A stretch of DNA of 64,000 nucleotides from an uncultured Acidobacteriota bacterium. Lineage in GTDB: Bacteria > Acidobacteriota > Vicinamibacteria > Vicinamibacterales > UBA823. A program made the translations under genes and the position numbers. The notes under the pieces are model-generated. The model was given only the letters and a program-made list of their open reading frames with translations. It searched no databases and was not told the origin of the DNA. This document shows positions 25,182 to 46,091 of this stretch, in pieces. Numbering within the stretch: position 1 is the stretch's first letter; each line of letters begins with the position of its first letter. The stretch is from positions 161 to 64,160 of the forward strand of contig CAJXDY010000008.1 of the NCBI GenBank assembly GCA_913052135.1, given 5' to 3'.

Positions 25182-25325
25182 ATCACTTCTCCTTAAGAGG
25201 CAGCGCAGGTTCACGGCCTTGCGATGTGCCAATCCTACGTGTCTGCGGCAGCGTCGTCAAACGAACGTGCATTGCATGTAATAGAAATCTTAGATAGTGT
25301 CTTTTGCAGGGTGAAGGAGATCGAA

Positions 25326-27215: not shown

Positions 27216-28867
27216 TGTTGAGTCTGTGTGATATCCAGCCTCGCTTGTTTGCTAACGCGCTCTGGTGTGTCGTGCTGGTGCTGGGTTGCAATAATCCAGT
27301 CAGCCTTGATGAGTCCAAGAACGCCAGTCAGATCGAAACCACCAACGCTCGCCCGAACATTCTGTTACTCGTTGCCGACGACATGGGGTACACCGATCTT
27401 GGATCGTTTGGTAGTGAGATTCCGACACCGAATTTGGATGCTCTGGCGTTTGATGGCGTGCGCTTTGTGAACTTCCACGCTGCGCCCAGTTGTGCGCCGA
27501 CTCGGGCCATGCTGATGTCAGGGCTGACCGGTGGTGAAGCAGGCGTGACGGACACCCTGTCTCCCGTGTTGTCAAACGACGTCGCAGCTTTACCTGCGCT
27601 CCTTCAGGATGTGGGTTACCGCACCTACATGGCCGGTAAATGGCATCTTGGCATTGAACACGACCAGAGTCCGACCGCCCGAGGGTTCGATGCCTCGTTC
27701 GCATTGGTCCGAGGTGGGGACAGTCACTTGGGAGCTAGTCATTTTGCACCTCAGACGGTGGCCTATCGTGAAAACGGTCAACTCGTCCAAGTTCCTGCTG
27801 ACTGGTTTTCAAGCAGGCTCTACACAGACAAACTCATCGAGATGATTCGTTCTGGCGAAGATAACCCAAGCCCGTGGTTCGGGTACTTGGCGTTTACCGC
27901 ACCACATTGGCCATTGCAGGTACCGGCGAACTGGCGAGATCGGTCAGCCGACCGTTACGATGGGGGATACGACCTCCTACGAGCAGCTCGCATCAACCGC
28001 GCCCGGGAGCTTGGAATTATCCCAGATACCACCAGTGTCGAGGACTACGTCGGTCTTGCACCGGCTTGGGAGGACTTGGATGCCGAAGCGCGTCAGAAGA
28101 ACGCACGGGCGATGGAGTTGTATGCGGCCATGGTCGAAAACATGGACTACCATGTTGGTCGTCTCTTGGAGTATCTGCGAACAACCAACCAGTTCGACAA
28201 CACAGTGATTCTCTTCTTCTCCGACAACGGTGCGTCTGGTTCCGATTCCAGTTTCCGACCGAGAATGCCTTGGAAGCCGGACCTCGCTTGGAATAACAGT
28301 TTGCCCAATATGGGTCAGGCAGGATCGTTTGTCGCCATTGGGCGGGGATGGGCAGAAGCGACGACAGCCCCATATCGTGATGTTAAAGGATCGCTGTACG
28401 AAGGTGGTACACGGGCTGCAGCCTTTATGCATCATGAGTCGTTCCTGCATGGTGGGAACATCGATCGTGGGTATCTGACGGTGATGGATGTACTCCCAAC
28501 GTTGCTCGAGATTGGTGGAACGGTGCATCCCGGTACTGAATTTCAAGGCCGCTCCGTCCTTCCCATCCGAGGACGGTCATTTTGGGCACGAGTGCAAGGC
28601 CGGGCGGAACCAGTGCACGGTGACAACGACGTCATACCGTGGATGAGTTCGTCCCCGAGATCTCAAGGTGCGCGAGCGGCTCTCGTGCGAGGAGACTGGA
28701 AAATTTTGCGAGAGCGAGAACCCTCCAGTGTCCCTGAGACCGCACCTATGTGGAGGTTGTATCACTTGGCGACCGACCCAGGAGAGACAACTGATGTGGC
28801 GGCGCAGTGGCCCGACATTCTAGAAGAATTAATTGCGCTGTGGGATGTCTACGAGGCAGGACTGTAG
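27215..28867 (+). CDS. Lipoprotein arylsulfatase (Cys-type, formylglycine-dependent)
   Basis: The start overlaps the upstream stop (TAATG at 27213-27217). The lipobox is VLVLGC. The protein has NILLLVADDMGYTD and the sulfatase signature SCAPTRAMLMSG (CxPxR). Confidence 0.9.
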   Translation: MLSLCDIQPRLFANALWCVVLVLGCNNPVSLDESKNASQIETTNARPNILLLVADDMGYTDLGSFGSEIPTPNLDALAFDGVRFVNFHAAPSCAPTRAMLMSGLTGGEAGVTDTLSPVLSNDVAALPALLQDVGYRTYMAGKWHLGIEHDQSPTARGFDASFALVRGGDSHLGASHFAPQTVAYRENGQLVQVPADWFSSRLYTDKLIEMIRSGEDNPSPWFGYLAFTAPHWPLQVPANWRDRSADRYDGGYDLLRAARINRARELGIIPDTTSVEDYVGLAPAWEDLDAEARQKNARAMELYAAMVENMDYHVGRLLEYLRTTNQFDNTVILFFSDNGASGSDSSFRPRMPWKPDLAWNNSLPNMGQAGSFVAIGRGWAEATTAPYRDVKGSLYEGGTRAAAFMHHESFLHGGNIDRGYLTVMDVLPTLLEIGGTVHPGTEFQGRSVLPIRGRSFWARVQGRAEPVHGDNDVIPWMSSSPRSQGARAALVRGDWKILREREPSSVPETAPMWRLYHLATDPGETTDVAAQWPDILEELIALWDVYEAGL

Positions 28868-30765: not shown

Positions 30766-31938
30766 TTATTGCTTGCCAAGCGTGGGACCTCCCGTGTCAA
30801 CCTGATTGGGCACTCGGTCGGCTGCAGCAGGCAAGGGTGGAAAAGGTGCGTGTGGTTCGTCTTGGTACCAATATGCCACCGTGTACCAATTATCTGCCCG
30901 ATGGTTACCGTGTCCGTGCTCCATGGTGACACGAATGGAATCCTGGAAGGCGACCGGTGACTCGGTGTGATGGCGGTAGACCATCCATTCAGCTCCGCGG
31001 TTGTCTCCGCCATTCATCGGATTACCGTAACGCTGGAACGCGAATGTGGGTTTGGCGTGTCCAAACGGGTTGATACCACAGCCGCCGTAACACCAGGCGC
31101 CTAGGTAGTAATCCTCAGAGCCGGTTCCAAGAATCTGTGGTGCAGTGGCACCATCAATGAAGATCATTTCGTCGCCAGCTCCCCACCAGTCGCCCTGATT
31201 TTGTAAGATGCTGTGGGTGACGCCAACGTAGTGCCCGCGTCCTTCGGTTTCAAGGATGACGTAGTTGTCTTCACCGTTGAGGTTGGCGTTGTCTGCAATA
31301 ATGGGATCCATAGTCAAATTCCAGTCAGTCGTCCAGACTTCTGGTGGGGCAGCCTGTCGGTACTGTGCGTGAAAATATGCCAAGTTGTCGTCCAGACTCA
31401 GATGTTTCTCGTAATCGATGTTGTAGTAGTACGCGCTAATTGGCTGTTCACCTTCATTGGTTACTGTAATCCTCGCGGACTCATGAAATGGCATTGGGAA
31501 GAATGTGTTGAGTGCCTTCAACGCTCCGACGGACAAGAGGGATGATTCGTAGACAAAGTACTGGCCGAGGCCAAGGCCGAAGAAGTCGCCGATGGGTGCT
31601 TCCACGCTCGGCTCGGTTTCGCCATCCCAGTACATGCGGAGTACGATTTTTTTCAAGTGATACCACTCTGGGGAGTCGAGCGTAATCCAGATATGGCTGA
31701 TGATAGCCGGCCCTTCGATTTCAGCCATGATCCGGGTTTCTCCTGGACCGATGGGATTGATGCGCCCACCGTCGTCGTTGCGACCGGAGCGATCGTAACT
31801 GGACACGCGATGGTTTTCGTAACTGCGGAACCGAGCGAGGTCGCTCAACTCATTACCCACCGGCTGCGCCTCTGCCAGGTGGACCGACACAATGAGCACG
31901 GCGAGTATCAGGTGTCCGTACGTTCGTGCATAGATCAT
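30766..31938 (-). CDS. Secreted DUF2961 / GH172-family protein
   Basis: 390-aa ORF with a signal peptide. It has the RVSSYDRSGRNDDGG block characteristic of DUF2961 and double-jelly-roll-like beta-rich sequence. Confidence 0.75.
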   Translation of the reverse strand: MIYARTYGHLILAVLIVSVHLAEAQPVGNELSDLARFRSYENHRVSSYDRSGRNDDGGRINPIGPGETRIMAEIEGPAIISHIWITLDSPEWYHLKKIVLRMYWDGETEPSVEAPIGDFFGLGLGQYFVYESSLLSVGALKALNTFFPMPFHESARITVTNEGEQPISAYYYNIDYEKHLSLDDNLAYFHAQYRQAAPPEVWTTDWNLTMDPIIADNANLNGEDNYVILETEGRGHYVGVTHSILQNQGDWWGAGDEMIFIDGATAPQILGTGSEDYYLGAWCYGGCGINPFGHAKPTFAFQRYGNPMNGGDNRGAEWMVYRHHTESPVAFQDSIRVTMEHGHGNHRADNWYTVAYWYQDEPHAPFPPLPAAADRVPNQVDTGGPTLGKQ

Positions 31939-32065: not shown

Positions 32066-33751
32066 ATGCGCACAGCAAGAGAGAGTACTTGGCGAGTAAC
32101 GTGCCGTAAACCGTTCGTACGGCGACTCGCTCTGCTCGGCGCCCTGTTGCTGATAGTCGCTGGTTCGATGTTGCTGAAGTCTGAGACGATTGCCTTTTGG
32201 CAGGTTGGTAGTGGGACTGGACGCCTGACGATGACGATTGTCGACGATACAACAGGAGTTTCCACTCCGGTTCGCATTCAGTTGACCAATGTGCAGGGTG
32301 AACCTGTGGTCCCACCGGATAACGCACTCGCCGTCATGTGGGGCCGGTTCGATGCGGCAGAGGATTTCGCCTCGTTACCAAACGGTGACTTTTATACGGA
32401 AGGTGCGTTTGAGTTAACGTTGCCGGCAGGGATCTATCAGTTGAGGATCTCGAAAGGGTATGAGTACCTCGAACAGGAACATGAAGTCGTCATTGCGCCG
32501 GACGAAGAGGTTCTGGAAACCTACCGGATGGCCCGTTGGGTAGACATGCCGTCGCGCGGCTGGGTATCGGCAGACGGTCACATTCATCTTCGACGGTCGC
32601 CACGCGATAACTCGTCAATTCTCGGGTGGATTGCGGCTGAGGATCTGCAGGTAGGTACTCTTCTGCAGATGGGTGACTTTTGGGCGACCTATTACTCACA
32701 GTATGCGTGGGGCCTCGACGGGGTCTATCACGTGGAAGACCGTTTGTTGGCGTCGGGGCAGGAAGACCCTCGGACGCACGAGCGGGGGCATACGATCTCA
32801 TTAGCTGCTGATGACTTCGTACGCCTCGAGGATCCTGCACTCAGCCAGGGTCCGAGTGGGTATTATTATTATGATCAGGTGTTTGACCGGATTCATGAAC
32901 TGGGTGGTATGACGGGCTATGCGCACCAAGCCGTAACATTTCATGGCTATCGTGGTCTGACGCTCGACGTCCTTCGCGATAAAGTCGATTTCTTGGAGTT
33001 GTTGCAGTTCTGCGCGGCAGACGGGCCTCTCCATACGAACCATTATTATCATTTCCTCAATCTTGGGTTTGAGTTGACCGCAACGGCCGGATCGGATTTT
33101 CCGTGGTGTGGTCGATCTCCGAATAGTGCCGATTCGAGAATCGGCGACGCACGTTTTTACGCCTACGTGGGCGATGAGTTCACTTTCGAGACTTGGCGCG
33201 AGAGTGTGCGTGACGGGCACACCTTTGTTACCAGTGGTCCGATCGTTGAATTGACAGTCAACGAAGCAATGCCTGGTGACCGAGTTGATGTGGCATCCGG
33301 GTCGACGCTCAGAATTACCGCGCGCGCTCAAGGGCATGCCACGCAGATCCCATTGGAGGAGCTTGAGATTGTGGCTCACGGAGCAGTCATCGAATCGGTG
33401 TCAGCTCGCGATCCGAATCAGTCGTCAGAACGTCTTGCGGTGACCATGAGTCTCCCGGTGGATCACGGTGTCTGGATTGCCGCCCGCACGAGAGCTGGCC
33501 CGACGCAAATAGCGCATTCAACGCCAGTGTATGTGACCGTGTCGGGTTCAGGCTTTCACAGTCCGGACACGCTTGAGGAGTATCTTGATTTAAGCGGGCA
33601 GTATCTCGATGAACTGCAGGAAGAAATTGCTCAGCCGAACGATTCACTTGACCATCTAGCTTGGCGAGATCGTGACGGATTGGAAGAACAGATTGCCGAA
33701 ACCCGAGAGGTGATTGCAAAACTTCGGCGGGAACTCGGCGACGGAGAATAA
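32066..33751 (+). CDS. CehA/McbA-like PHP-domain metallohydrolase with an N-terminal beta-sandwich
   Basis: 561-aa ORF preceded by RBS GGAGGAGGAGGAG, with an N-terminal anchor. It carries VRIQLTNVQGEPVVP (carboxypeptidase-regulatory-like) and then GWVSADGHIHLRRSP (PHP-type HxH). The assignment is tentative. Confidence 0.5.
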   Translation: MRTARESTWRVTCRKPFVRRLALLGALLLIVAGSMLLKSETIAFWQVGSGTGRLTMTIVDDTTGVSTPVRIQLTNVQGEPVVPPDNALAVMWGRFDAAEDFASLPNGDFYTEGAFELTLPAGIYQLRISKGYEYLEQEHEVVIAPDEEVLETYRMARWVDMPSRGWVSADGHIHLRRSPRDNSSILGWIAAEDLQVGTLLQMGDFWATYYSQYAWGLDGVYHVEDRLLASGQEDPRTHERGHTISLAADDFVRLEDPALSQGPSGYYYYDQVFDRIHELGGMTGYAHQAVTFHGYRGLTLDVLRDKVDFLELLQFCAADGPLHTNHYYHFLNLGFELTATAGSDFPWCGRSPNSADSRIGDARFYAYVGDEFTFETWRESVRDGHTFVTSGPIVELTVNEAMPGDRVDVASGSTLRITARAQGHATQIPLEELEIVAHGAVIESVSARDPNQSSERLAVTMSLPVDHGVWIAARTRAGPTQIAHSTPVYVTVSGSGFHSPDTLEEYLDLSGQYLDELQEEIAQPNDSLDHLAWRDRDGLEEQIAETREVIAKLRRELGDGE

Positions 33752-33794: not shown

Positions 33795-34700
33795 ATGGAA
33801 CCTGACACAAGACATTTCGGTATCCTGTCAAAAGTTGCTTTCCCGGCGACGATGTTAGGTGCTTTCGCGGTAAATGCCACGCTAGTGTCGATGGGATGGT
33901 CGATCCTGGGAGCTTCGTATGTTGCGGTCGTGTTGGCGGCAGCTGCCGTCACGTGTTTTGAGTTCGTCATTCCCTATGACAAATCCTGGCAACCGCGGTG
34001 GACCGATGTAAAGAATGACCTATTGTTCATGGTTACGATTCAGATGGTGCTCCCGCAAGTACTCGGATTGGTGGTGGCATTGACGGCGCTTGGATACTTC
34101 GACTCTCTCGATTGGTCGCTCGGGCAAGTGTGGCCTAGCCAGTGGCCGTTGATTCTTCAAGTAGCTTTGATGCTCTTGACGGCCGAACTGTTTCGGTACC
34201 CGCTGCATGTCGCGGCGCATAACACCAAAACCCTGTGGCGACTTCACGCAGTGCATCATTCACCCAAGAAGCTCTACTGGCTCAATGTTGGGCGGTTTCA
34301 TCCTGTCGAAAAGGCACTGCAGTATTCGCTCGACACCCTGCCGTTTTTGTTGGTTGGTGTCGGTGGGGATGTTGTCGCCCTCTATTTTCTCTTCTATGCA
34401 ATCAACGGCTTTTACCAGCATTCCAATGTTGATGTCTGTTACGGGCCTCTCAATTATTTAGTGAGTGGACCTGAATTGCATCGTTGGCACCATTCGAAGC
34501 TGGTGGATGAATCGAATCGCAACTACGGCAATAACCTGATTGTCTGGGACCTTCTGTTTGGCACTTGGTTCTTACCAAAACGTATGCGGGTCGGCAAGTT
34601 AGGTCTCTTTAATCGTGATTACCCGTTGGACTTTGTCGGCCAGATGACGGCACCTCTAACCCCGGGTCTCGACAAGCAGTCACCACCTCATGATCGCTAA
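33795..34700 (+). CDS. Membrane fatty acid hydroxylase / sterol desaturase superfamily (di-iron His-box enzyme)
   Basis: 301-aa polytopic ORF with His boxes HVAAH, HAVHH and HRWHH, plus a YQHSN block. Confidence 0.8.
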   Translation: MEPDTRHFGILSKVAFPATMLGAFAVNATLVSMGWSILGASYVAVVLAAAAVTCFEFVIPYDKSWQPRWTDVKNDLLFMVTIQMVLPQVLGLVVALTALGYFDSLDWSLGQVWPSQWPLILQVALMLLTAELFRYPLHVAAHNTKTLWRLHAVHHSPKKLYWLNVGRFHPVEKALQYSLDTLPFLLVGVGGDVVALYFLFYAINGFYQHSNVDVCYGPLNYLVSGPELHRWHHSKLVDESNRNYGNNLIVWDLLFGTWFLPKRMRVGKLGLFNRDYPLDFVGQMTAPLTPGLDKQSPPHDR

Positions 34701-36381
34701 TACGTTGCTCAATTGCGCACTCTGGGTGCGCATGCAAATCCTTTGGTGGACTCATTGGCGACCGTTCGTGCACGCGGCCAAACATCCGGGACAGATTCAG
34801 CGTGCGTTGTTACAGCAACTCTTGCGTCGTAACACTACGACGCGATTTGGGCGTGAGCATCGCCTAAACACAGTGAGCAACTACGATGACTTTATCGGCG
34901 CAGTTCCGGTGCAAACTTATGAGACCCTGCGTCCCTATATTGAGGACCAAGAGCAGACTGGCGAACCGGCGCTTAACATTGCGCAGCCGGTTATGTACGC
35001 GAAGACGAGTGGAACGACTGGGCAAGCGAAGTTGATTCCGATTCTTCCGGCGACCCTCCAGGAACATAAGCGGAGCCAAGCCATCCAATCGTACGTGCAG
35101 TTTACGACCGAGCCGCGTGCCTACTATGGACGCTGTGTCGCAATCGTCAGTCCAGCTGAAGAAGGAACGCTCGACACTGGCACACCGTATGGCTCTACCT
35201 CGGGGTTCATGTACCAGAACATGCCAAGACTAGCCAAGGTGAAGTACGTGTTGCCGTATCAGGTGTTTGAAATCGAAGACTATGATCTCAAGTATCTTCT
35301 TATTTTACGACTTGGTGTTGCATACCGTGACGTGACGCATCTCGCGTGCGCGAATCCATCTACCTTAGTTAAGCTGCTCGCTGTTCTTGCAGCCAATCGC
35401 ACCTCATTGTTGCGCGACATCACGCAGCAAACGTTTTCTCGGATCGACGAGCTGCCGGTCGACGTGCAGGCGGTCATTCGTCCACAGTTGTCGTGTACGC
35501 CGCGTCGCGTCACCGAACTGCAGACGATTCTCACGTTGCCGCAGCCGACATTCGCCGATCTTTGGCCCGAGTTGCAGATGGTGTCTACGTGGACTGGGGG
35601 AAGTTGTGGTATTCCGCTGGCACGTGTGCGTCCAACCCTCCCACCGACTGCACGCGTGGCCGAGTTGGGTTATTTAGCGAGTGAACTCCGAGGGACACTG
35701 ATGGTTGACTTAAAGCGGAACATTGGCATTCCGACCATCCATGAAAACTTTTTCGAGTTTGTCGAACGTGAGGATTGGGATGCAGGCCGTCAGGCGTTCC
35801 TTACGATTGATCAACTCACCGAGGGCAAGGAGTACTATATTTTTCCGACGACCGGGGCTGGCCTCTATCGCTATTTCATGAATGATATCGTGCGCGTCAC
35901 CGGGTTGTTTTACAACACGCCGACGATTGAGTTTGTGCAAAAAGGGAAGGGCGTAACAAATATTACCGGGGAAAAACTGTATGAAAGTCAGGTGATTGCT
36001 GCAGTACGAACCGCTGAAGATGCTACCGGATTCGTATCGGGATTTTTTCTTATGTTCGCCGATGCTGTCCAAGAACGCTATCGTCTCGTGGTGGAATGTG
36101 CCACGCCGACGGACAGCTGGGTACAGCAAACAGTTGAGTCGGTTGAACGGCACCTTATGGCCGGCAACGTCGAATATGCAGCCAAGCGGGCGAGTGGACG
36201 CCTACAGCCACTGGAATTGCTTCCGGTCCGCTCCGGAACGGGCGACGCTTATAAGCAGCACTGTCTCCAGCAGGGACAACGGGAAGGGCAATTTAAACTG
36301 ATCGCTCTCCAGTATCAAGCGGACTGCCCGTTTCCTTTCGCTGAGTTCCGGGCGGACCTTACTACACCCTCGGTAGACTAG
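34690..36381 (+). CDS. GH3-family (auxin-responsive-promoter family) adenylating acyl-acid amido synthetase homolog
   Basis: 563-aa ORF. ATG 34690 overlaps the upstream gene by 11 nt. It has the GH3/ANL motif YAKTSGTTGQAKLIP, and TPYGSTSG, YRYFMNDIV and GEKL blocks in GH3 order. Confidence 0.8.
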   Translation: MIANTLLNCALWVRMQILWWTHWRPFVHAAKHPGQIQRALLQQLLRRNTTTRFGREHRLNTVSNYDDFIGAVPVQTYETLRPYIEDQEQTGEPALNIAQPVMYAKTSGTTGQAKLIPILPATLQEHKRSQAIQSYVQFTTEPRAYYGRCVAIVSPAEEGTLDTGTPYGSTSGFMYQNMPRLAKVKYVLPYQVFEIEDYDLKYLLILRLGVAYRDVTHLACANPSTLVKLLAVLAANRTSLLRDITQQTFSRIDELPVDVQAVIRPQLSCTPRRVTELQTILTLPQPTFADLWPELQMVSTWTGGSCGIPLARVRPTLPPTARVAELGYLASELRGTLMVDLKRNIGIPTIHENFFEFVEREDWDAGRQAFLTIDQLTEGKEYYIFPTTGAGLYRYFMNDIVRVTGLFYNTPTIEFVQKGKGVTNITGEKLYESQVIAAVRTAEDATGFVSGFFLMFADAVQERYRLVVECATPTDSWVQQTVESVERHLMAGNVEYAAKRASGRLQPLELLPVRSGTGDAYKQHCLQQGQREGQFKLIALQYQADCPFPFAEFRADLTTPSVD

Positions 36382-36383
36382 TT

Positions 36384-37508
36384 ATGCACCTTGCTCTCTT
36401 TCGAGTCGAGATTCCCTTTACGACGACCTTTACCCATAAGTCGGCTAGCCGTGCTGCGACCCAGAGCGTCTGGGTGGTCGCGCAGACTGGGCAGGTCATT
36501 GGCGTGGGCGAAGGGTGTCCTCGTGAGTACGTCACGGGAGAAAGTCTCGTGTCGGCGCAAGCATTTTTCGAGGAACATCGGGAGTCCCTCTGTCGCACGG
36601 TACAGTCCGTTGCGAACTTGCGTACCTGGGTGGACACCCATACGGCAATCATTGATGTGAACCCGGCAGCCTGGTGTGCGATGGAATTGGCGATGCTGGA
36701 AATGTTTGCGCGACGCGAGGGGGTACCAGTCGAGCGCGTGCTGGACTTGCCGACTACGACAGGGGCCTTTACGTATTCGGCGATCGTGAGCGACAGCGAG
36801 ACCGAACAGTTTCGGAGGACGGTGGCACAGTATCGGGCGATGGGGTTCGTCGATTTTAAATTAAAACTGTCTGACGATTTGAATCACAACCACGAGAAGA
36901 TTAAGAGTATGCGTACGGAGCATGAACAAACACCACTCCGGATTCGAGTTGATGCGAACAACCTTTGGGATGATGTCGACACGGCGGTACGAGATCTGAG
37001 AGAGTTGGCATGGGATTTCGTCGGGATTGAGGAACCATTGTCGCCGAACGCCTTTGACGGCATGCGCGAGGTATCGGAGTGTATGGGCTCCCCGATCATT
37101 CTGGACGAAAGCTTTCTGCGGGTCGACCAGGTCGCGGCACTTGCTCGGGATGCGGAGCGCTGGATCATCAATGTGCGTGTGTCCAAGATGGGTGGGCTGT
37201 TCCGGTCACTGGCAGTTGTTCAAGCCGCAGGCCAGGCCGGCATTCCTGTGATCGTGGGTGCGCAGGTTGGCGAGACAAGCGTGTTGACACGAGCTGCGCT
37301 GATTGTGGCGCGAGCAGCTGGGACCAATCTCGTGGCGCAAGAAGGAGCCTTCGGTACGCATCTGCTTCAGACGGACGTAGCGAACCCAGTCCTTATGTTT
37401 GGTGCAGGCGGTATCCTCAAGGCTGACGAGTATGCTTTAGCTACCGCCAGCGGGTGGGGACTCACGTTGTGGCCGACACAAGACTTTGCCGTGAGTTTGT
37501 CTGAATGA
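36384..37508 (+). CDS. Enolase-superfamily enzyme, MLE subgroup (racemase/epimerase/cycloisomerase)
   Basis: 374-aa ORF starting 2 nt after the GH3 stop. It has the KxK motif in DFKLKL, metal ligands in RVDANN, IEEP and ILDES, and the second catalytic Lys in VSKMGG. Confidence 0.8.
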   Translation: MHLALFRVEIPFTTTFTHKSASRAATQSVWVVAQTGQVIGVGEGCPREYVTGESLVSAQAFFEEHRESLCRTVQSVANLRTWVDTHTAIIDVNPAAWCAMELAMLEMFARREGVPVERVLDLPTTTGAFTYSAIVSDSETEQFRRTVAQYRAMGFVDFKLKLSDDLNHNHEKIKSMRTEHEQTPLRIRVDANNLWDDVDTAVRDLRELAWDFVGIEEPLSPNAFDGMREVSECMGSPIILDESFLRVDQVAALARDAERWIINVRVSKMGGLFRSLAVVQAAGQAGIPVIVGAQVGETSVLTRAALIVARAAGTNLVAQEGAFGTHLLQTDVANPVLMFGAGGILKADEYALATASGWGLTLWPTQDFAVSLSE

Positions 37509-37647
37509 CCAACTCACACGACCCCTGGAGTCATCTTGAAATCCTTGAATGCCAGCGGTACAGTGCTGAGTGGTCATCGTGGCCGGAGAGCATTGTGCCA
37601 ACACTGGCTGAACAGTCGCGTAACATTCGAGCAGCATTCCCAGTCAA

Positions 37648-39633
37648 GTGGGTCGGAGTCTGGACGAGATAGTGACGGACTGGCACTGGCCCGGATGGAT
37701 ACGTTTCGGTGGGTTCGTCGTGTTGGCGGGTGTTTCCGCGTTCACCCTGTACGCACGGACCTACCAAACCTTTGATCGGGTTCGGGTGCCAGTCATCACC
37801 GGTGAGCAGCAGCCGGTCGATGGCCTCTTAACTGTACCGCTTCCAGAGGTCCCAGACCTCGCCGGCCGGCCCACGGCAATCATTGTTAAATTACTGAACG
37901 CGGCGCGTTCAAGTCGCACCATCACGATTACTTTCAATGATACAGAACCGACGCACGTTGATCTTCGACCAGCGGAGACACGACGGATTGATCTCATGGT
38001 GCCCACGGGTGTCCAGCCGGGCGACATACTTGAGTTGCGTGGTGATGGGTCAGGTTGGGCGCTGTCCTCCTTGGAAATCGGGACCGCGCATGGATTTTCC
38101 CACGGCCTGTTCAGCCTAGTCATTGTGCCGGGGATCGTGAATGACTACGAATCCGTTTCCGCAGTGGGAGCGGTGGGGTTGTTTGTGGTATTGCTGGTCT
38201 TGTCGTGTGCACTGTTCCGCTTCGAGACGCATGCTTTGGTTCGACGCATTGAAACGAGTCTGATCAGTATCATCGGCGGCTTCTTCTGTCTCACCTGGCT
38301 TATCCCGACTGTGTCACCGTACAAGGTCCTGCTTTCGTGGAGTGCGTTGACCATCTGTTTGGGTGTTTTGTATATACCGGTCGTGATCCCGAGCGTGCGG
38401 GGACTGTGGCGCGGGTGCGTGAGACTGTGGCAGATCAAACTCGAGTTTTATTCTGCCAGGAAAAGGAGCCTGACACGGATTGGGCTCAGGACACTCTGTG
38501 GTGGCTTGGTTGCACTCTTTCTTGTTTCGATGAGTGGCTTTTACGCAAGCGAGACTGGGTTTACTTCCCTCATCTTGTTTGGAGAGCGATACGAGGCACA
38601 GGCATTACCAACGGTGCAAGCCTTGCCGCACTTTGTGGACTCATCGCCGGGTTACGATGGACAGTTTTATGCGCAGTTAGCCTTGGACCCGTTCTTCCAA
38701 GATCCGCTCATTGAACACGCGATCGACACTTTTTCGTATCGTGCGCCCCGCATTCTCTTTTCCTGGACCGCGTTTCTCTTGGGTATGGGTCAACCGTCGT
38801 TGATTTTGCAAGCCTATGCGATTCAGAACATCCTGTGCTGGTTCATCTTGGCGTGGTTGCTGCTGCGGTGGGTGCCGCCGGCCACTTTTACCAATTTATT
38901 ACTGTGGACTGGTTGTCTCTTTGGGTACGGGTTGATTTCGTCAGTGCGGCTTTCACTGTTAGCCGGCCCCAGTTTGTTGCTCTTGGTGTTGGCGATGATA
39001 GCGCTTGAGCGGGGCCGGCCATGGATGGCCACGGCCGTCCTCGGGCTGGCGGGCCTTGGACGAGAAACGAATTTGCTGGCCGGCGTCGCAGTGCTTCCTC
39101 GCACCTGGCGGGTGTTTCGATTGCACGATCTTCTCGTGCCGGTCACTCGTGGCGTCGTGGTGGCAATGCCGTTCGCGCTGTGGCTCGCGTACCTTTACTG
39201 GTCCGACTACGGGGTAGTGCTTTCGTCGGGAGAGCACAACCTCGCGGCGCCCTTGTCGGCGCTCATCACTAAGTGGCGCGTGACGCTGTCGGAACTCTGG
39301 TTCAATCCCTGGGGGAAAACGTTTGCCCGATTTAGTTTTCTTACATTACTCAGCTTAACGCTCCAAGCAATCTTTCTCGTCTGGCAGCGCGATTGGACGT
39401 CACCGTGGTGGCGTGTGGGCATTGCATATGTGGGTCTGATGTGCATTTTGGGTCCAGCCGTGTGGGACGGTCATCAATTTGCGGCGAGTCGTGTGTTGTT
39501 ACCAATGACTGTCGCTTTTAATGTGCAACTCGCGCGTATGGGAGGTTTCTGGCCGTTGGCCATCCTTGGCAATGTGTCCGTGGTGGCGGGGTTGGAAACG
39601 CTTCGGGTGCCGTGGCTATGGCACTATCTCTGA
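37648..39633 (+). CDS. Large polytopic membrane protein (possible GT-C-like transferase), N-terminal beta-rich extracytoplasmic domain
   Basis: 661-aa ORF. The start is uncertain (GTG 37648 or GTG 37672). It has one N-terminal TM, a domain of about 130 aa (TITITFNDTEPTHVDLRPAETRRIDL) and then at least 10 hydrophobic helices. The loop motif SPGYDGQFYAQLALDPF is reminiscent of GT-C/PIG-V-like enzymes, but this family call is weak. Confidence 0.5.
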   Translation: MGRSLDEIVTDWHWPGWIRFGGFVVLAGVSAFTLYARTYQTFDRVRVPVITGEQQPVDGLLTVPLPEVPDLAGRPTAIIVKLLNAARSSRTITITFNDTEPTHVDLRPAETRRIDLMVPTGVQPGDILELRGDGSGWALSSLEIGTAHGFSHGLFSLVIVPGIVNDYESVSAVGAVGLFVVLLVLSCALFRFETHALVRRIETSLISIIGGFFCLTWLIPTVSPYKVLLSWSALTICLGVLYIPVVIPSVRGLWRGCVRLWQIKLEFYSARKRSLTRIGLRTLCGGLVALFLVSMSGFYASETGFTSLILFGERYEAQALPTVQALPHFVDSSPGYDGQFYAQLALDPFFQDPLIEHAIDTFSYRAPRILFSWTAFLLGMGQPSLILQAYAIQNILCWFILAWLLLRWVPPATFTNLLLWTGCLFGYGLISSVRLSLLAGPSLLLLVLAMIALERGRPWMATAVLGLAGLGRETNLLAGVAVLPRTWRVFRLHDLLVPVTRGVVVAMPFALWLAYLYWSDYGVVLSSGEHNLAAPLSALITKWRVTLSELWFNPWGKTFARFSFLTLLSLTLQAIFLVWQRDWTSPWWRVGIAYVGLMCILGPAVWDGHQFAASRVLLPMTVAFNVQLARMGGFWPLAILGNVSVVAGLETLRVPWLWHYL

Positions 39634-40696: not shown

Positions 40697-42193
40697 CTAT
40701 CGATAGTCCGCGCCAGTCAAACTGTTTAACGTGGAGGACTGCCATTCGCGGAGCTGCTTCGCCAACGCGATTACGATGGCCGGTTCATCTGCAGCTAGGT
40801 TGTGTGTCTCTGCCGGATCGTCGCCGAGGTGAAATAGTTCCATGTCCGAGTCTGTGGCGCCATTGATGACGAGTTTGTAGTGGTGATCGAGGATGACGCG
40901 TGAACCCAGAAAGTCGTGTGTCTCGATCGTCCGGTAGTGAATGTTTTGAAAGTTGCGGGTCGAAATACCATTCATGAGTTTGACTAACGGTGTGGTTCCA
41001 ACCTGGAGGTCGGGGTTAATGTACGGGTCACGCGTCCGGTCGTTGAGGCTGTCACTATTGAAACTCCAAAAGAACAGCGGCGATGGCCTCGCGGTCATCG
41101 TGCCGTTGATCAACGGCATAAGATTGATGCCATCCAAGGGGCGTTCCGGTATTGCTTGGCCTGCGATCGCAGCAAGGGTCGGTAAGATATCGCTGGTGAT
41201 GGTCGGGAGTTGGGTGCTGCGCGGTGTGGAGATGTGCGCCGGCCATTCAATGACACCCGGTACGCGAATTCCACCGTCGTATAGGGTGCCTTTCAGCCCT
41301 CGCAACGGCGTGTCCGCGAGACCGCTCGGTGGCGTCCCATTGTCGCTGTTGTACCAGAGTAAAGTGTTCTCTCGCAGACCGGTTCGTTCGAGATACTCGC
41401 GCAGCGTCCCAATGGCGCGATCCATCGCCGTGATTTCGGCGTAGCGCTCACGTAATACCTCACGCAACGGCCGTTGAATTTGGGTGCCCGTCTCGTTCGA
41501 TGTCAATGACACAACCTGCGCTGCGTAACGAGTCGGCAGATCATCATACAGAGCAAGGTCTTGCGGTAAACCACTGTATGGCTCATGCGGTGAGCCGAAC
41601 CAGACCACCGCGAGGAACGGCGTGCCGTGTTGCGTTGACTTCTTAATAAAGCGAATAGTTTCGTCGATTAGAACGCCTGAACTCTCCCCGTCAAGACGGG
41701 TAGGTGGTCCGCCATTTCGTGACAGGACCGGATTCAGTTCAAAAAAATTGTCATGCGATAACCATTCATCAAATCCCATCGCCCCAGGGCTTGTGGGTGA
41801 CGTGGCCTTGACGGGTCCGACGTGCCACTTGCCAAAATGCCCCGTGGTGTACCCGGCCTCGCGTAATAGATGGGCGATGGTGATTTCTTCTGGACGGATC
41901 GACCAGTTTGGTGCAAACGTGCCGTACCGAATTGGGTGACGTCCCGTCAAGACACTCCCGCGAGTGGGGGAACAGTTCGGATGTGCGGCATAGAACCGAT
42001 CAAGGCGTAATCCAGTCGCCGCCATTTCATCAAGGACGGGTGTCTGCACATAGGGATGTCCGTTGTAACCCGTCTCTTCCCAGCCATGGTCGTCACCCAT
42101 GAGCAGAATGATGTTTGGGCGGTCCTCTGCCTGCGCCGCTGTTAGGTTGATAAACACGGTGGCGCAACAGGAGATAATAAGTTGTCGGGTCAT
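40697..42193 (-). CDS. Secreted sulfatase (Cys-type)
   Basis: 498-aa ORF with a signal peptide, PNIILLMGDDHGW and the signature NCSPTRGSVLTGR (CxPxR). Confidence 0.9.
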   Translation of the reverse strand: MTRQLIISCCATVFINLTAAQAEDRPNIILLMGDDHGWEETGYNGHPYVQTPVLDEMAATGLRLDRFYAAHPNCSPTRGSVLTGRHPIRYGTFAPNWSIRPEEITIAHLLREAGYTTGHFGKWHVGPVKATSPTSPGAMGFDEWLSHDNFFELNPVLSRNGGPPTRLDGESSGVLIDETIRFIKKSTQHGTPFLAVVWFGSPHEPYSGLPQDLALYDDLPTRYAAQVVSLTSNETGTQIQRPLREVLRERYAEITAMDRAIGTLREYLERTGLRENTLLWYNSDNGTPPSGLADTPLRGLKGTLYDGGIRVPGVIEWPAHISTPRSTQLPTITSDILPTLAAIAGQAIPERPLDGINLMPLINGTMTARPSPLFFWSFNSDSLNDRTRDPYINPDLQVGTTPLVKLMNGISTRNFQNIHYRTIETHDFLGSRVILDHHYKLVINGATDSDMELFHLGDDPAETHNLAADEPAIVIALAKQLREWQSSTLNSLTGADYR

Positions 42194-42829: not shown

Positions 42830-43286
42830 AGAAGTTGCTACCACCTCGAAAGAACTGGCAGTGACCCTTCCATCTGCCGAAGGGCTGGAACAATTCGTCC
42901 GACGCTATTGGGAAATGCGCGACAAGCTTGACTCGATGCTTCAAAACCAAATCATCGAGATTCGTGGTAAGAAGTTTCGGTGTAAGGGGTTTTGGCGTGC
43001 CATTGCTCAAGGTTTTAAACTTGATCTGACGTGTCTCAAGGAAGAACGCTACGACCGCGATGGCGACTGGGGCTACATTGTGACCTACCGCGTGACTGAC
43101 CCGACCACGGGGCGGTCCGTCGATGGCGATGGCGCATGTGCAGTCTCAGAGCCATCAAAACGTGGCCCAATGGGCACGGAACACAATGTTCGGTCCCATG
43201 CTCACACACGGGCGAAGAATCGGGCCATCGCTGATATGGTGGCGTTTGGGGAAGTCACGGCAGATGAAGTACTGGGGACGGAATAG
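42813..43286 (+). CDS. Hypothetical cytoplasmic protein (C-terminal helix reminiscent of Rad52/ERF-type annealing proteins; unverified)
   Basis: The in-frame ATG at 42813 (alternative 42795) overlaps the upstream stop. The protein has no signal peptide. It has a beta-rich middle (GDWGYIVTYRVTDPTTGRSVDGDGACAV) followed by SHAHTRAKNRAIADMVAFGEVTADEV. Confidence 0.45.
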   Translation: MTSPPEEVATTSKELAVTLPSAEGLEQFVRRYWEMRDKLDSMLQNQIIEIRGKKFRCKGFWRAIAQGFKLDLTCLKEERYDRDGDWGYIVTYRVTDPTTGRSVDGDGACAVSEPSKRGPMGTEHNVRSHAHTRAKNRAIADMVAFGEVTADEVLGTE

Positions 43287-43968
43287 GCCATTAGTTGTGG
43301 TGGCGGTCACCTACTACATGGTTCTCATTCTCTTACTCGCGACACTAAGTACACCACTTCTTGCGCAATCTGATCTTGAGGATTTACGTAGACGTGCGGA
43401 CGAAGGGTATGTGCGGGCACAGTACAACTTGGCCTTGATGTACGACACGGGCCGAGGAGTTCCGGAAGATAACATGGAGGCCGTGCGTTGGTATCGTAAG
43501 GCGGCGGACCAAGGGAATGTGAGAGCACAGAATAACCTTGGGGTGATGTACGACGCTGGTGAGGGCGTTCCAGAAGACAACGCGGAAGCGGTGCGCTGGT
43601 ATCGTATGGCTGCGGAGCAAGGCGACGCTTCGGCTCAGTACAATCTTGGGGTGATGCACGACACTGGTGAAGGTGTTCCGGAAGACGACGAGGCTGCGGT
43701 GCGCTGGTATCGCGAAGCTGGAGAGCAAGGAGATGTAAGAGCGCTGCACAACTTGGGCTTGAAGCACTCCAATGGTCGAGGCGCTCCTCAGGATCGGATG
43801 TTGTCATATATGTGGTTTGACATTGTGGCGTCACGAACCACGGGAAGCTTACGACACGTTGCCATGCTCAATCGCGATCAAGAGAAGGCTTTTTTGACAC
43901 CTGCCCAAGTTACCGAAGCGCAACAACTTGCCCGAGAATGGAATGCGGCACATCCGCGCGAACCGTAA
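43264..43968 (+). CDS. Secreted Sel1-repeat (SLR/TPR-like) protein
   Basis: ATG 43264 (MKYWGRNRPLVVVAVTYYMVLILLLATLSTPLLAQ) overlaps the upstream gene by 23 nt; the alternative start is ATG 43318. There are four consecutive 36-aa Sel1 units of the form AQYNLGVMYDxGxGVPEDxxEAVRWYRxAAEQG. Confidence 0.8.
   Translation: MKYWGRNRPLVVVAVTYYMVLILLLATLSTPLLAQSDLEDLRRRADEGYVRAQYNLALMYDTGRGVPEDNMEAVRWYRKAADQGNVRAQNNLGVMYDAGEGVPEDNAEAVRWYRMAAEQGDASAQYNLGVMHDTGEGVPEDDEAAVRWYREAGEQGDVRALHNLGLKHSNGRGAPQDRMLSYMWFDIVASRTTGSLRHVAMLNRDQEKAFLTPAQVTEAQQLAREWNAAHPREP
43405..43836 (+). repeat. Four tandem 108-bp coding repeats (Sel1 units)
   Basis: The nucleotide-level period is 108. The near-identical strings gc(c/g)gtgcg(t/c)tggtatcg start at 43480, 43588 and 43696, and unit starts (GGG-xAT-GTG) are at 43405 and 43513. 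Confidence 0.8.
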
Positions 43969-44099
43969 GTGCCTCATCGGCAACATCTACTGGCAAAAGG
44001 GTTCCGTTGAAGTATGCTGTTACGAGGAAGGGCCTGATCCTTATCGCAGACAGAGAAGACCCTGCGGAGCTTGAACTGTTAACAGAATATGACATTGGG

Positions 44100-44513
44100 A
44101 TGACGCAGCCAGAGGAATCAAGCGCTCCGGAACCCGTGGGCGCCTATCCGCATGCACGCCGCGTAGGAAATCTGCTATTTCTGTCTGGAATCGGTCCGCG
44201 AGTGAGAGGACAACAGGAGATTCCGGGTGTCACGCGCGACGACGATGGACGTGTGGTTGCCCATGACATTGAAGCGCAGTGTCGATCGGTTTTCGAGAAT
44301 GTGCGTACCGTTCTAAAGGAATTCGGGTCTACGTGGGAACAATTGATCGACGTGACGGTCTTTCTGACGAACATGGCGGATGACTTCGACACGTTCAACA
44401 CGGTGTACGCTGAGTATTTCTCGACGAATCAACCATGCCGCACGACGGTGGAAGTGAATCGCTTGCCCACGCCGATCGCTATCGAACTGAAATGTATTGC
44501 CATAGTGGACTAA
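44100..44513 (+). CDS. RidA/YjgF/TdcF-family deaminase (candidate 2-aminomuconate deaminase in this context)
   Basis: ATG 44100 gives MTQPEESSAPEPVGAYPHARRVGNLLFLSGIGPR, and the protein ends in PCRTTVEVNRLPTPIAIELKCIAIV. This is classic RidA architecture. The track ORF's 54 upstream codons are unlikely to be coding. Confidence 0.8.
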   Translation: MTQPEESSAPEPVGAYPHARRVGNLLFLSGIGPRVRGQQEIPGVTRDDDGRVVAHDIEAQCRSVFENVRTVLKEFGSTWEQLIDVTVFLTNMADDFDTFNTVYAEYFSTNQPCRTTVEVNRLPTPIAIELKCIAIVD

Positions 44514-44529
44514 GTTGAGGAGTGAGAGA

Positions 44530-45042
44530 ATGCGCGAACTTAAGGCCTTTAACTTCAAGCAATGGATCGACGAGCATCGAGAGTTCCTCAAGCCCCCGGT
44601 TGGAAACAAGCTGGTGTTTCAAGATGCCGAGTTCATCGTGATGGTGGTGGGCGGGCCGAACAAACGAACGGATTATCACTACGACGAGAGCGAAGAGTTT
44701 TTCTATCAAGTGGAAGGCGATATTGTGCTCAAGATTATAGAGAACGACACGCCGATCGATATTCCGATTCGCGAAGGCGAGATCTTCCTGCTGCCAGCCA
44801 GGGTGCCACATTCTCCGCAGCGCGGGCCCAACACCGTCGGCTTGGTCATCGAGCGGAAGCGGACCGAGCACGAGAAGGACGGGCTCATCTGGTTCTGCGA
44901 GAAATGCCACCACAAACTCTACGAGGAATTTTTTCGTCTGGAGAACATCGAAACGCAATTGCCAACGGTCATTAGCCACTTCTATAGCTCGACTGAGCAT
45001 CGTACGTGTACGGAGTGTGGAACGGTGATGGCGCAACCGTAG
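44530..45042 (+). CDS. nbaC: 3-hydroxyanthranilate 3,4-dioxygenase
   Basis: ATG 44530 follows GAGGAG. The protein has FKQWIDEHREFLKPPVGNK, RTDYHYDESEEFFYQVEGD and LLPARVPHSPQR, and a C-terminal rubredoxin-like Cys4 site (CEKC...CTEC). Confidence 0.9.
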   Translation: MRELKAFNFKQWIDEHREFLKPPVGNKLVFQDAEFIVMVVGGPNKRTDYHYDESEEFFYQVEGDIVLKIIENDTPIDIPIREGEIFLLPARVPHSPQRGPNTVGLVIERKRTEHEKDGLIWFCEKCHHKLYEEFFRLENIETQLPTVISHFYSSTEHRTCTECGTVMAQP

Positions 45043-45080
45043 CGTCGGTCCTGTTAGGGACGACCGTTGCCTGAGGCGTG

Positions 45081-46091
45081 ATGCTAAAAGTCGATATCCA
45101 TACGCACATCCTCCCCGAGACTTGGCCCGATCTGAAAGAGCGCTACGGCTATGGTGGATTCGTGCAACTCGAACAGCATGGTTCCGGCTGCGGGCGCATG
45201 TCGATTGACGGTCGAGTGTTCCGAGAGGTCGGTAAGAACTGTTGGGATCCCAAAACACGTTTAACGGACTGTGACGACCACGGGGTCGATGTGCAGGTGC
45301 TCTCGACTGTTCCGGTGATGTTTAGTTACTGGGCCGAGCCCGAGGATGCGCATGACTTGTCACGACTACTGAATGATCATCTCGCGGGTGTCGTGGCGGA
45401 TCATCCTCGGCGGTTCGTCGGCTTGGGGACCGTGCCGATGCAGGACCCGACGCGGGCGGTCCAGGAACTTGAACGGTGCGTGAAGACGCTCGGCATGGCG
45501 GGCATTCAGATTGGCAGCCACGTCAACGGCCAAAACTTGGATGATGAACGAGTGTTTCCCGTTTTCGAAGCGGCTGAGGCGCTGGGGGCCGCAATCTTCG
45601 TACACCCTTGGGACATGCTAGGGGGTGATCGGATGTCAAAGTATTGGCTGTCTTGGCTCGTAGGTATGCCGTCCGAGACCGCGCTGGCGATCTGCGCGAT
45701 GATGTTTGGCGGCGTTTTCGATCGCCTACCACGGCTACGCGTCGCATTCGCTCACGGTGGCGGAGCGTTTCCTGGTACGGTGGGACGCATCGACCATGGA
45801 TTCAAGGTGCGTCCCGATCTCTGCGCGGTTAATGTCGAGATGAGTCCACGCGAGCAGTTACGCCGCTTTTATGTCGATGCGCTCGTGCATGATGCCGACG
45901 CGTTGCTGTCGCTGATCAAGCTATTCGGCTCGGATCGCGTGGCGCTCGGTACCGATTATCCATTCCCGTTGGGGGAACACGAGCCGGGTGCACTAATTGA
46001 ATCATTACCATTGGATACGGTGACGCGGCAGCAGCTACTCAGTGCCTCGGCCCTCGACTGGCTAAATCTCAATCCGAACCAATTTTCGTGA
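45081..46091 (+). CDS. 2-amino-3-carboxymuconate-6-semialdehyde decarboxylase (ACMSD, amidohydrolase_2 family)
   Basis: MLKVDIHTHILPETWPDL (HxH metal site), VHPWDM, FAHGGGAFP and LGTDYPFPLG are typical ACMSD blocks. GTG 45078 is an alternative start. Confidence 0.85.
   Translation: MLKVDIHTHILPETWPDLKERYGYGGFVQLEQHGSGCGRMSIDGRVFREVGKNCWDPKTRLTDCDDHGVDVQVLSTVPVMFSYWAEPEDAHDLSRLLNDHLAGVVADHPRRFVGLGTVPMQDPTRAVQELERCVKTLGMAGIQIGSHVNGQNLDDERVFPVFEAAEALGAAIFVHPWDMLGGDRMSKYWLSWLVGMPSETALAICAMMFGGVFDRLPRLRVAFAHGGGAFPGTVGRIDHGFKVRPDLCAVNVEMSPREQLRRFYVDALVHDADALLSLIKLFGSDRVALGTDYPFPLGEHEPGALIESLPLDTVTRQQLLSASALDWLNLNPNQFS

Follow-up and report, generated by a model that had tools for sequence, protein, structure and literature searches.

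The window analysed here is a 64,000-nucleotide stretch of contig CAJXDY010000008.1 (assembly GCA_913052135.1) from an uncultured Acidobacteriota bacterium of the Vicinamibacterales. This work concerns three tightly packed genes at 33795-37508 that encode a membrane hydroxylase, a GH3-type synthetase and an enolase-superfamily protein, together with the genes on either side of them. All five open reading frames (ORFs) listed in a preliminary description of this DNA were recovered with the same boundaries, strands and junctions:

32066-33751, plus strand: CehA/McbA-type metallohydrolase (ORF; NCBIfam NF038032)
33795-34700, plus strand: membrane di-iron hydroxylase of the FA_hydroxylase superfamily, OlsE-like, 301 aa, with three to four transmembrane (TM) segments (Pfam, NCBIfam, hydropathy)
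34690-36381, plus strand: predicted GH3-type ATP-dependent acyl-acid amido synthetase, 563 aa (Pfam GH3 N, M and C domains)
36384-37508, plus strand: divergent enolase-superfamily protein of the MLE subgroup, 374 aa, with Arg at the β6 catalytic position (Pfam MR_MLE_C, AlphaFold2 (AF2) model)
37648-39633, plus strand: polytopic membrane protein, 661 aa (ORF; no Pfam match)

The hydroxylase and GH3 genes overlap by 11 nt, the ATG of the latter (34690-34692) lying upstream of the TAA of the former (34698-34700), and the GH3 stop codon (TAG, 36379-36381) is separated from the ATG of the enolase-type gene (36384-36386) only by the dinucleotide 'tt'. The CehA stop codon is 43 nt from the hydroxylase start, and 139 nt lie between the enolase-type gene and the membrane-protein gene. 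A scan for promoters and terminators over 31.9-40.8 kb, including the 139-nt gap, found sites no more commonly than in shuffled sequence and for this reason was not used as evidence. Profile searches upheld the domain labels that had been given to these proteins. The hydroxylase scored 97.4 bits with PF04116 (cut-off 31), the GH3 protein 179.6, 65 and 56.3 bits with PF03321, PF23571 and PF23572, its N, M and C domains (cut-off 23.6), the enolase-type protein 100.1 bits with MR_MLE_C, and the metallohydrolase 201.3 bits with the CehA/McbA model NF038032 (cut-off 80). Every motif noted beforehand was found at the expected residue numbers in the hydroxylase, GH3 and enolase-type proteins. The proposal that four genes, from the hydroxylase to the membrane protein, are packed as one coupled unit survives for the first three, whereas the fourth lies beyond the 139-nt gap and is non-syntenic elsewhere.

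A GH3 homologue profile (A1) combined with clade-specific peptide patterns retrieved 495 loci from 185,579 species genomes; all synteny counts given below rest on the best 80 of these, compared by tblastn with six window proteins. The complete trio of hydroxylase, GH3 and MLE-type genes, in the same order and on the same strand, is present in 78 of the 80 loci. Hydroxylase homologues occur immediately 5' of the GH3 gene in 79 loci, the one exception being a contig that ends there, and MLE-type homologues immediately 3' of it in 79 (all except L076); both are invariably encoded on the GH3 strand. A reverse search from MLE homologues, judged by Pfam labels on independently made gene calls, recovered the same trio. 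Between the window and the acidobacterial loci L003 and L004, homology is limited to 33822-37511, from the hydroxylase start to the MLE stop. Conservation of the gene combination elsewhere, on which the first interpretation of the locus had been made to depend, is thus borne out by the neighbourhood survey.

By deposited taxonomy, trio carriers span about 17 phylum-level groups, among them Acidobacteriota, Gemmatimonadota, Gamma-, Beta- and Alphaproteobacteria, Poribacteria, Latescibacterota, Fibrobacterota, Bacteroidota, Verrucomicrobiota, Planctomycetota, Nitrospinota, SAR324, Chloroflexota, Binatia and Leptospiria. The proteobacterial carriers include Nitrosomonas, Nitrotoga, Gallionellaceae and Methylotenera metagenome-assembled genomes (MAGs). 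One locus, L001, is 88-96% identical to the window and therefore counts as effectively the window's own lineage. L001 and L002 are near-identical, yet their deposited taxonomies conflict ('uncultured Woeseiaceae bacterium' against 'Acidobacteria bacterium UBA9620'); the Woeseiaceae bin label is probably wrong, since the next-closest relatives are all Acidobacteria/Vicinamibacterales MAGs. L076 (1909-4485) is the sole locus that has downstream sequence yet carries no MLE-type gene, after a fused hydroxylase-GH3 gene; the MLE step may be dispensable there, or its gene may lie elsewhere in the genome. An apparent interruption was seen in L084 (2063-5278) and L085, where a GH3_C fragment alone is left upstream of the MLE-type gene, preceded by RVT_1 and GIIM reverse-transcriptase/maturase ORFs typical of a group II intron.

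The three genes are also found fused to one another. Hydroxylase and GH3 form one ORF in at least 30 of the 80 loci (with Pfam confirmation for L019), and the protein database holds such single polypeptides of about 840-905 aa (P0094-P0120). GH3-MLE fusions occur in L075 (928 aa) and in P0065. One protein of 1,207 aa (P0371) carries FA_hydroxylase, then all three GH3 domains, then MR_MLE_C, an arrangement confirmed on its contig. Taken with the 11-nt overlap and the 2-nt spacing, these fusions argue strongly for joint action of the three proteins on a single substrate series. From synteny, translational coupling and the double and triple fusions, it is very probable that the hydroxylase, GH3 and enolase-type genes constitute one functional module, as had been proposed for this part of the locus.

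In the GH3 protein, the GH3/ANL adenylation motif YAKTSGTTGQAKLIP occupies residues 103-117, and the nucleotide-binding motifs T106SGTTGQAK114, G327YLASE332 and G391LYRYFMND399 stand in invariant columns of profile A1 and conform to the reference forms (S/T)SGT..K (P-loop), Y..SE and YR...(G/N)D. The closest solved relatives in the PDB are plant GH3/JAR1 enzymes (E~1e-17). The protein shares the three-domain architecture and all three nucleotide-binding motifs of plant GH3 enzymes (JAR1, GH3.5/3.6, GH3.12/PBS3), and its motif III, GLYRYFMND, is nearly that of JAR1 (GLYRYRLGD), to which it is nearer than to that of OlsH (GMWSHLIGD). In contrast, identity to the plant enzymes is low, and these are soluble, stand-alone proteins with hormone substrates and with neither a hydroxylase nor an enolase partner. 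A tblastn search of plasmids with the GH3 protein gave only GH3s of at most 28% identity and no member of the trio clade.

A bacterial precedent is provided by OlsH, a GH3-like enzyme of Singulisphaera acidiphila that makes N-acyl ornithine from free C14-C18 fatty acids and ornithine with ATP and Mg2+ (PMC12493201, Rivera-Najera et al.). The alpha/beta-hydrolase OlsI adds the second acyl chain, and olsH, olsG and olsI form an operon. The same paper lists the motifs of OlsH and JAR1, reports from OlsH mutagenesis that motif serines matter, and describes bacterial GH3 homologues as widespread and possibly specific for other amino acids; it was the first demonstration, in 2025 and in one planctomycete, of GH3-dependent bacterial lipid N-acylation (PMC12493201). 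We compared the window proteins with OlsH and OlsE through NCBIfam models and published motifs. Against the OlsH model NF052613 the GH3 protein scored 87.6 bits (cut-off 620), and the best stretch covers residues 29-231 only.

The trio would resemble the OlsH system in the ligation of a fatty acid to an amino acid by a bacterial GH3 fold, as inferred here from OlsH, and it does so in clustering with lipid-tailoring enzymes and, in a subset of loci, in an alpha/beta-hydrolase partner (CocE/NonD). It differs in that its partners are an OlsE-like hydroxylase and an enolase-type enzyme, whereas those of OlsH are a methyltransferase and OlsI; the conserved partner set is thus different and larger, and the window has no adjacent alpha/beta-hydrolase. 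Neither an OlsI-type alpha/beta-hydrolase nor an OlsG-type methyltransferase gene lies beside the window GH3 gene, whose neighbours are the hydroxylase and MLE-type genes. By analogy, the first step of the trio would proceed as in OlsH. An earlier statement that no bacterial operon of this kind had been characterised is outdated with regard to bacterial GH3 operons in general, because OlsH-OlsG-OlsI has been published; an operon of this composition did not turn up in the literature searches. Searches for the gene combination returned nothing beyond the OlsH paper (PMC12493201) and a 2026 review (PMC12971839), and neither these two nor any other hit mentions an enolase-superfamily partner, an OlsE-like GH3 partner or fusions.

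The hydroxylase carries the three His boxes HVAAH (138-142), HAVHH (151-155) and HRWHH (229-233), of the forms HX3H, HX2HH and HX2HH, and ten histidines (H138, H142, H151, H154, H155, H169, H209, H229, H232 and H233) are invariant in 73 syntenic homologues. OlsE is the hydroxylase that acts on C4 of the ornithine-lipid head group in Rhizobium tropici and Agrobacterium (PMC12971839). The OlsE model NF052566 matches the window hydroxylase over its full length (residues 11-289 against positions 6-284 of 293) with 189.4 bits against a cut-off of 475. The two thus share the di-iron FA_hydroxylase superfamily, their length and the N-terminal TM architecture, whereas the score sets the window hydroxylase apart as a paralogous family, and no fusion or clustering of OlsE with GH3 has been reported. 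As the scores stay under the tested cut-offs, the trio falls outside the OlsH and OlsE equivalog families.

The enolase-type protein requires a closer description, since it had been credited with a complete MLE-subgroup catalytic set. Its motifs are DFKLKL (157-162), RVDAN (188-192), IEEP (215-218), ILDES (239-243) and VSKMGG (266-271). In the AF2 model (pLDDT 92.3), strands β2, β3 and β4 end at K161, D190 and E216, and D241 follows β5. The D/E/D metal ligands of the MLE-subgroup TIM-barrel (D190, E216, D241) and the KxK at β2 (K159, K161) are therefore in place, and K159, K161, D190, E216/E217, D241, N263, R265, S267, K268 and E320 are invariant in the family. The catalytic lysine at the end of β6 is absent. 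Strand β6 spans 260-265 and ends in R265, which aligns with the catalytic 'NIK' lysine of 2p88, 3jva, 1jpm, 3r0k and 3rit in every HMMER alignment. The lysine of VSKMGG, K268, sits in the following helical turn, three residues past the catalytic site, in a second-shell position. All of 65 syntenic and 30 database homologues share the pattern N263-x-R265-x-S267-K268-x-G-G. The set is accordingly incomplete in one position, and a canonical two-lysine racemase site is not supported.

Among 372 homologous clusters (E<=1e-30), the 150 best representatives have Arg at this position in 121 cases and Lys in 22. All but one of the 22 Lys forms group in a single clade of a neighbour-joining tree, and the β6 column alone separates both groups. 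Two Lys-type proteins, P0402 (L090:1091-3067) and P0457 (L091:3214-5271), have the motif NxKVS[KR]xGG and are fused at the C-terminus to an S33/Hydrolase_4 alpha/beta-hydrolase; no GH3 or hydroxylase gene lies near either locus. The sister clade to which they belong keeps the canonical β6 Lys and represents an uncharacterised MLE-hydrolase fusion family. Since the fused Lys-type members are not beside GH3 or hydroxylase genes, the Arg form is the GH3-associated form.

A PDB search with the family profile placed the Bacillus cereus N-succinyl-Arg/Lys racemase 2p88 first (139 bits), followed by the dipeptide epimerases 3jva, 1jpm, 3r0k and 3rit (106-125 bits); muconate and chloromuconate cycloisomerases scored 57-92 bits. 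Foldseek with the AF2 model repeated this ranking (2p88, 3jva and 1jpm nearest), with a TM-score of about 0.8 and about 21% identity. Clustering with muconate cycloisomerases, which would have spoken against the preliminary interpretation, was thus not observed. Every NCBIfam equivalog cut-off was missed widely: 82.8 bits against 334.95 for the muconate/chloromuconate cycloisomerase model TIGR02534, 58.8 against 500 and 45.2 against 343 for the dipeptide epimerase models NF041118 and NF011708, and 34-72 bits, all under the cut-off, for the menC models. In dipeptide epimerases a DxD motif at β8 binds the N-terminal ammonium of the dipeptide. This motif is absent here, the 'FDFD' of YkfB aligning with the invariant E320-G-A-F-G, which, on sequence grounds, fits a substrate that has no free N-terminal ammonium.

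The β6 lysine is the acid/base catalyst in the N-succinylamino acid racemase (NSAR) of Amycolatopsis (K263) and in the dipeptide epimerase of B. subtilis (K268), and the residue three positions on (R266 and K271, respectively) supplies a second-shell positive charge that is important for two-base 1,1-proton transfer (bioRxiv 10.1101/2022.03.03.481873, Truong et al.). In the OSBS reaction, by comparison, the β6 lysine makes only a cation-pi contact (bioRxiv 10.1101/2022.03.03.481873). Of the NSAR/OSBS residues, the equivalents of K163 (K161 here) and R266 (K268 here) are present in the window protein, and that of K263 is Arg. The protein thus agrees with NSAR and the dipeptide epimerases (2p88, 1jpm/YkfB, 3jva) in fold, KxK at β2, D/E/D ligands and positive second-shell residue (K268, corresponding to R266 of the Amycolatopsis enzyme and K271 of the B. 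subtilis enzyme), and differs from them in the invariant β6 Arg, in E320-G-A-F-G instead of DxD and in overall identity. To judge by these residues, the enolase member belongs to an atypical Arg-variant family and is not a textbook racemase. R265 might act as the base, K268 might replace the missing lysine, or K161 might act alone, which would imply β-elimination or cycloisomerase-type chemistry. Arginine bases exist, for example, in pectate lyases. No single reading of the enolase-type step holds more than a third of our confidence.

Two further genes recur beside the trio in other lineages. A four-TM protein of about 150 aa, for which Pfam, NCBIfam and PHROGs gave no match, was counted with hidden Markov models (HMMs) in 51 of the 80 loci, nearly always just 5' and co-directional. 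A CocE/NonD (S15) alpha/beta-hydrolase was found in the same way in 19 loci, and in five loci the two are fused to each other. The four-TM protein would belong to the module in most other lineages, and the CocE/NonD hydrolase, found in roughly one in four of them, may be an O-acyltransferase that corresponds to OlsI. A divergent helix-turn-helix (HTH) regulator is present at some gammaproteobacterial loci. A Pfam survey of 55 other co-directional flanking genes gave only housekeeping or singleton families, none of them recurrent. Repeated neighbours of the trio in L081-L085 are an FMO-like/Lys_Orn_oxygenase-like flavoprotein, a GtrA-family membrane protein and several unannotated ORFs; this set was not seen in the 80 genome loci and may represent lineage-specific tailoring. 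The sole S15 hydrolase of the window (25224-27215), 6.5 kb upstream of the trio, was considered as the missing hydrolase partner and rejected: it is merely 25-27% identical to the trio-associated ones, and its 82% orthologue adjoins the membrane-protein gene in L088.

On balance we lean towards reading 33795-37508 as a three-gene, translationally coupled operon for a membrane-associated biosynthetic module that would yield a tailored N-acyl amino acid or aminolipid. The nearest characterised relatives (OlsH and OlsE, which are the best NCBIfam hits and both part of ornithine-lipid metabolism, 2p88 and the dipeptide epimerases) all act on lipid or N-acyl amino-acid substrates. The substrates, the order of the reactions and the product are inferred. 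In this scheme the GH3 enzyme would adenylate a free fatty acid or another lipophilic acid with ATP/Mg2+ and join it to an amino acid through the alpha-amino group, the reaction demonstrated for the distant homologue OlsH. The conjugate would be hydroxylated by the OlsE-like enzyme at its head group, the site that OlsE uses, or at its acyl chain. The enolase-type enzyme would bind the free alpha-carboxylate of the conjugate on Mg2+ (D190/E216/D241), and K161 would remove the alpha-proton, with subsequent inversion at C-alpha or elimination of a beta-substituent giving the tailored N-acyl amino acid or aminolipid. We place this chemistry at the membrane because the membrane hydroxylase, frequently fused to GH3, and the four-TM protein co-occur, and by a slight preference we would locate formation of the product at the cytoplasmic face.

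Several points weigh against this scheme. Racemase chemistry is uncertain because the canonical β6 Lys is lacking. The enolase-type family has many invariant polar or charged residues (H18, R23, R47, Y49, E53, R274, R303, E320), which do not obviously point to a long-chain lipid pocket. The substrates and products of the members are assigned by analogy, and the OlsH and OlsE matches lie far under the equivalog cut-offs (87.6/620 and 189.4/475); their agreement is, moreover, weaker than it looks, since NCBIfam probably has few alternative bacterial models. The four-TM gene was not found in the window or in L001, and no alpha/beta-hydrolase is adjacent in the window. Finally, the enolase-type enzyme could act on the free acid before ligation.

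This last possibility leads to a different order of events, modelled on MenC and MenE, in which an MLE-subgroup enzyme is paired with an ANL-fold adenylating ligase. The hydroxylase and the enolase-type enzyme would modify the free acid, for instance by hydroxylation and then Mg2+-assisted alpha-proton abstraction with beta-elimination or cyclisation, and GH3 would conjugate the result. A free (hydroxy) acid also offers the carboxylate and alpha-proton that enolase-superfamily enzymes need, and the β6 Arg fits single-base dehydratase or cycloisomerase chemistry, all the more as the residue needs no acid/base role in OSBS, where the lysine is engaged in the cation-pi contact alone (bioRxiv 10.1101/2022.03.03.481873). 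OlsH, too, takes free fatty acids (PMC12493201). We nevertheless hold this order to be unlikely. The nearest solved relatives of the enolase-type enzyme are racemases and epimerases of amino-acid derivatives, not OSBS or MLE, the second-shell positive residue tied to 1,1-proton transfer is retained (K268), and the gene and fusion order puts the MLE domain after GH3. The Men pair also differs in having no membrane hydroxylase. The product of MenE is a CoA thioester, not an amide.

The product might instead be a soluble signalling or specialised-metabolite conjugate of an aromatic or small acid with an amino acid, comparable to plant GH3 hormones or isochorismoyl-glutamate, and not a membrane lipid. 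The JAR1-like motif III, the many invariant polar residues in the enolase-type pocket and the divergent HTH regulator of some gammaproteobacterial loci would agree with this. We judge it improbable, as the hydroxylase, a di-iron integral membrane protein, often forms one polypeptide with GH3 and is matched over its full length by the OlsE model, and the four-TM protein accompanies 51 of the 80 loci.

A five-gene pathway, in which the PHP/CehA hydrolase, the hydroxylase, GH3, a classical two-lysine N-acyl-amino-acid racemase and the membrane protein would jointly produce and export the conjugate, is very improbable and largely refuted by synteny. The five genes do point the same way, with spacings of 43 nt and 139 nt, and keep their arrangement in L001, but CehA and the membrane protein are seen beside the trio in that locus alone, essentially the same lineage. 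Homologues of the membrane protein at 60%, 50% and 44% identity have no GH3 trio nearby, the membrane protein looks envelope-glycopolymer- or GT-C-like on weak evidence, and the β6 Lys is absent. The acyl-amino-acid idea of the preliminary description is retained in part. The finding is real and more than chance, and a GH3-centred pathway to a lipid-type product is reasonable, with a polytopic hydroxylase often fused to GH3 and now with the OlsH precedent; the unit is three genes, not five.

The two flanking genes appear from these comparisons as lineage-specific neighbours whose membership in the pathway is not supported, and for the membrane protein no link to acyl-amino-acid handling was found. 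Besides CehA, whose product has no Pfam match at E<0.01, and the membrane protein, a downstream YghX/DLH hydrolase accompanies the trio in L001 only. The membrane protein has at least nine hydrophobic segments by hydropathy, and in its AF2 model (pLDDT 80) a single TM helix is followed by a β-sandwich (46-161) and some 12 further helices. Residues 287-487 score 128.7 bits with NF046093 (AZOBR_p60025, cell-surface glycopolymer formation), a borderline value under the cut-off of 150. PHROGs gave nothing, and Foldseek gave no match at E<=1e-3, only weak CBM35/CBM6-like and PimE (GT-C) matches; an envelope-glycopolymer or GT-C-like protein with a CBM-like domain is for this reason treated as a lead only.

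The 60% membrane-protein orthologue directly follows the 82% orthologue of the window S15 hydrolase in L088/L089, whereas in the window the S15 gene lies about 10 kb upstream of the membrane-protein gene. Since both genes adjoin in L088/L089, the window has about 10 kb of extra DNA between them, a block at about 27.2-37.6 kb with a sulfatase, pyruvate kinase, DUF2784, DUF2961, CehA and the trio. Contiguous orthologues in L088/L089 correspond to the window aminotransferase (21049-22191), S15 CocE/NonD hydrolase (25224-27215), membrane protein (37648-39633) and Sel1 protein (43123-43968), and further window-extra blocks lie at about 22.2-25.2 kb (GH127) and 39.7-43.1 kb. The segment 21049-43968 is thus a variable region. 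It also contains a GH127 beta-L-arabinofuranosidase-like protein with an F5/8 type C domain, two sulfatases and DUF2961, which together suggest a sulfated-polysaccharide-degrading lifestyle and are encoded at:

22728-25232, minus strand
27215-28867, plus strand
30766-31938, minus strand
40697-42193, minus strand

Further downstream on the plus strand (43938-46091), genes for a RidA-like protein (Ribonuc_L-PSP), a 3-hydroxyanthranilate 3,4-dioxygenase (3-HAO, 215 bits) and an ACMSD-like Amidohydro_2 protein stand in a row, which looks like a 3-hydroxyanthranilate/kynurenine-branch catabolic cluster.

Returning to the trio as a module for a tailored N-acyl amino acid or aminolipid, we entertain a broader interpretation, with somewhat more doubt than conviction. 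The trio, with at least 495 carrier species genomes in about 17 phylum-level groups, may be a widespread and previously unrecognised pathway to modified N-acyl amino acids or aminolipids of an unknown class, and its enolase member a new Arg-β6 family with non-canonical chemistry. Such chemistry could be an Arg-assisted or single-base β-elimination to a dehydro-amino-acid lipid, or an epimerisation to a D-amino-acid lipid. The module would carry GH3-dependent lipid N-acylation to far more environmental phyla, including nitrifiers, iron oxidisers, sponge symbionts and marine Acidobacteriota, and with other tailoring enzymes. The natural double and triple fusions provide ready single-polypeptide constructs for biochemistry. 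The invariant Lys-to-Arg replacement at the catalytic position that is best conserved in the MLE subgroup, set against a Lys-keeping, hydrolase-fused sister clade, is a natural experiment on divergence in the enolase superfamily, and the identity of the product could account for unassigned aminolipids in environmental lipidomes.

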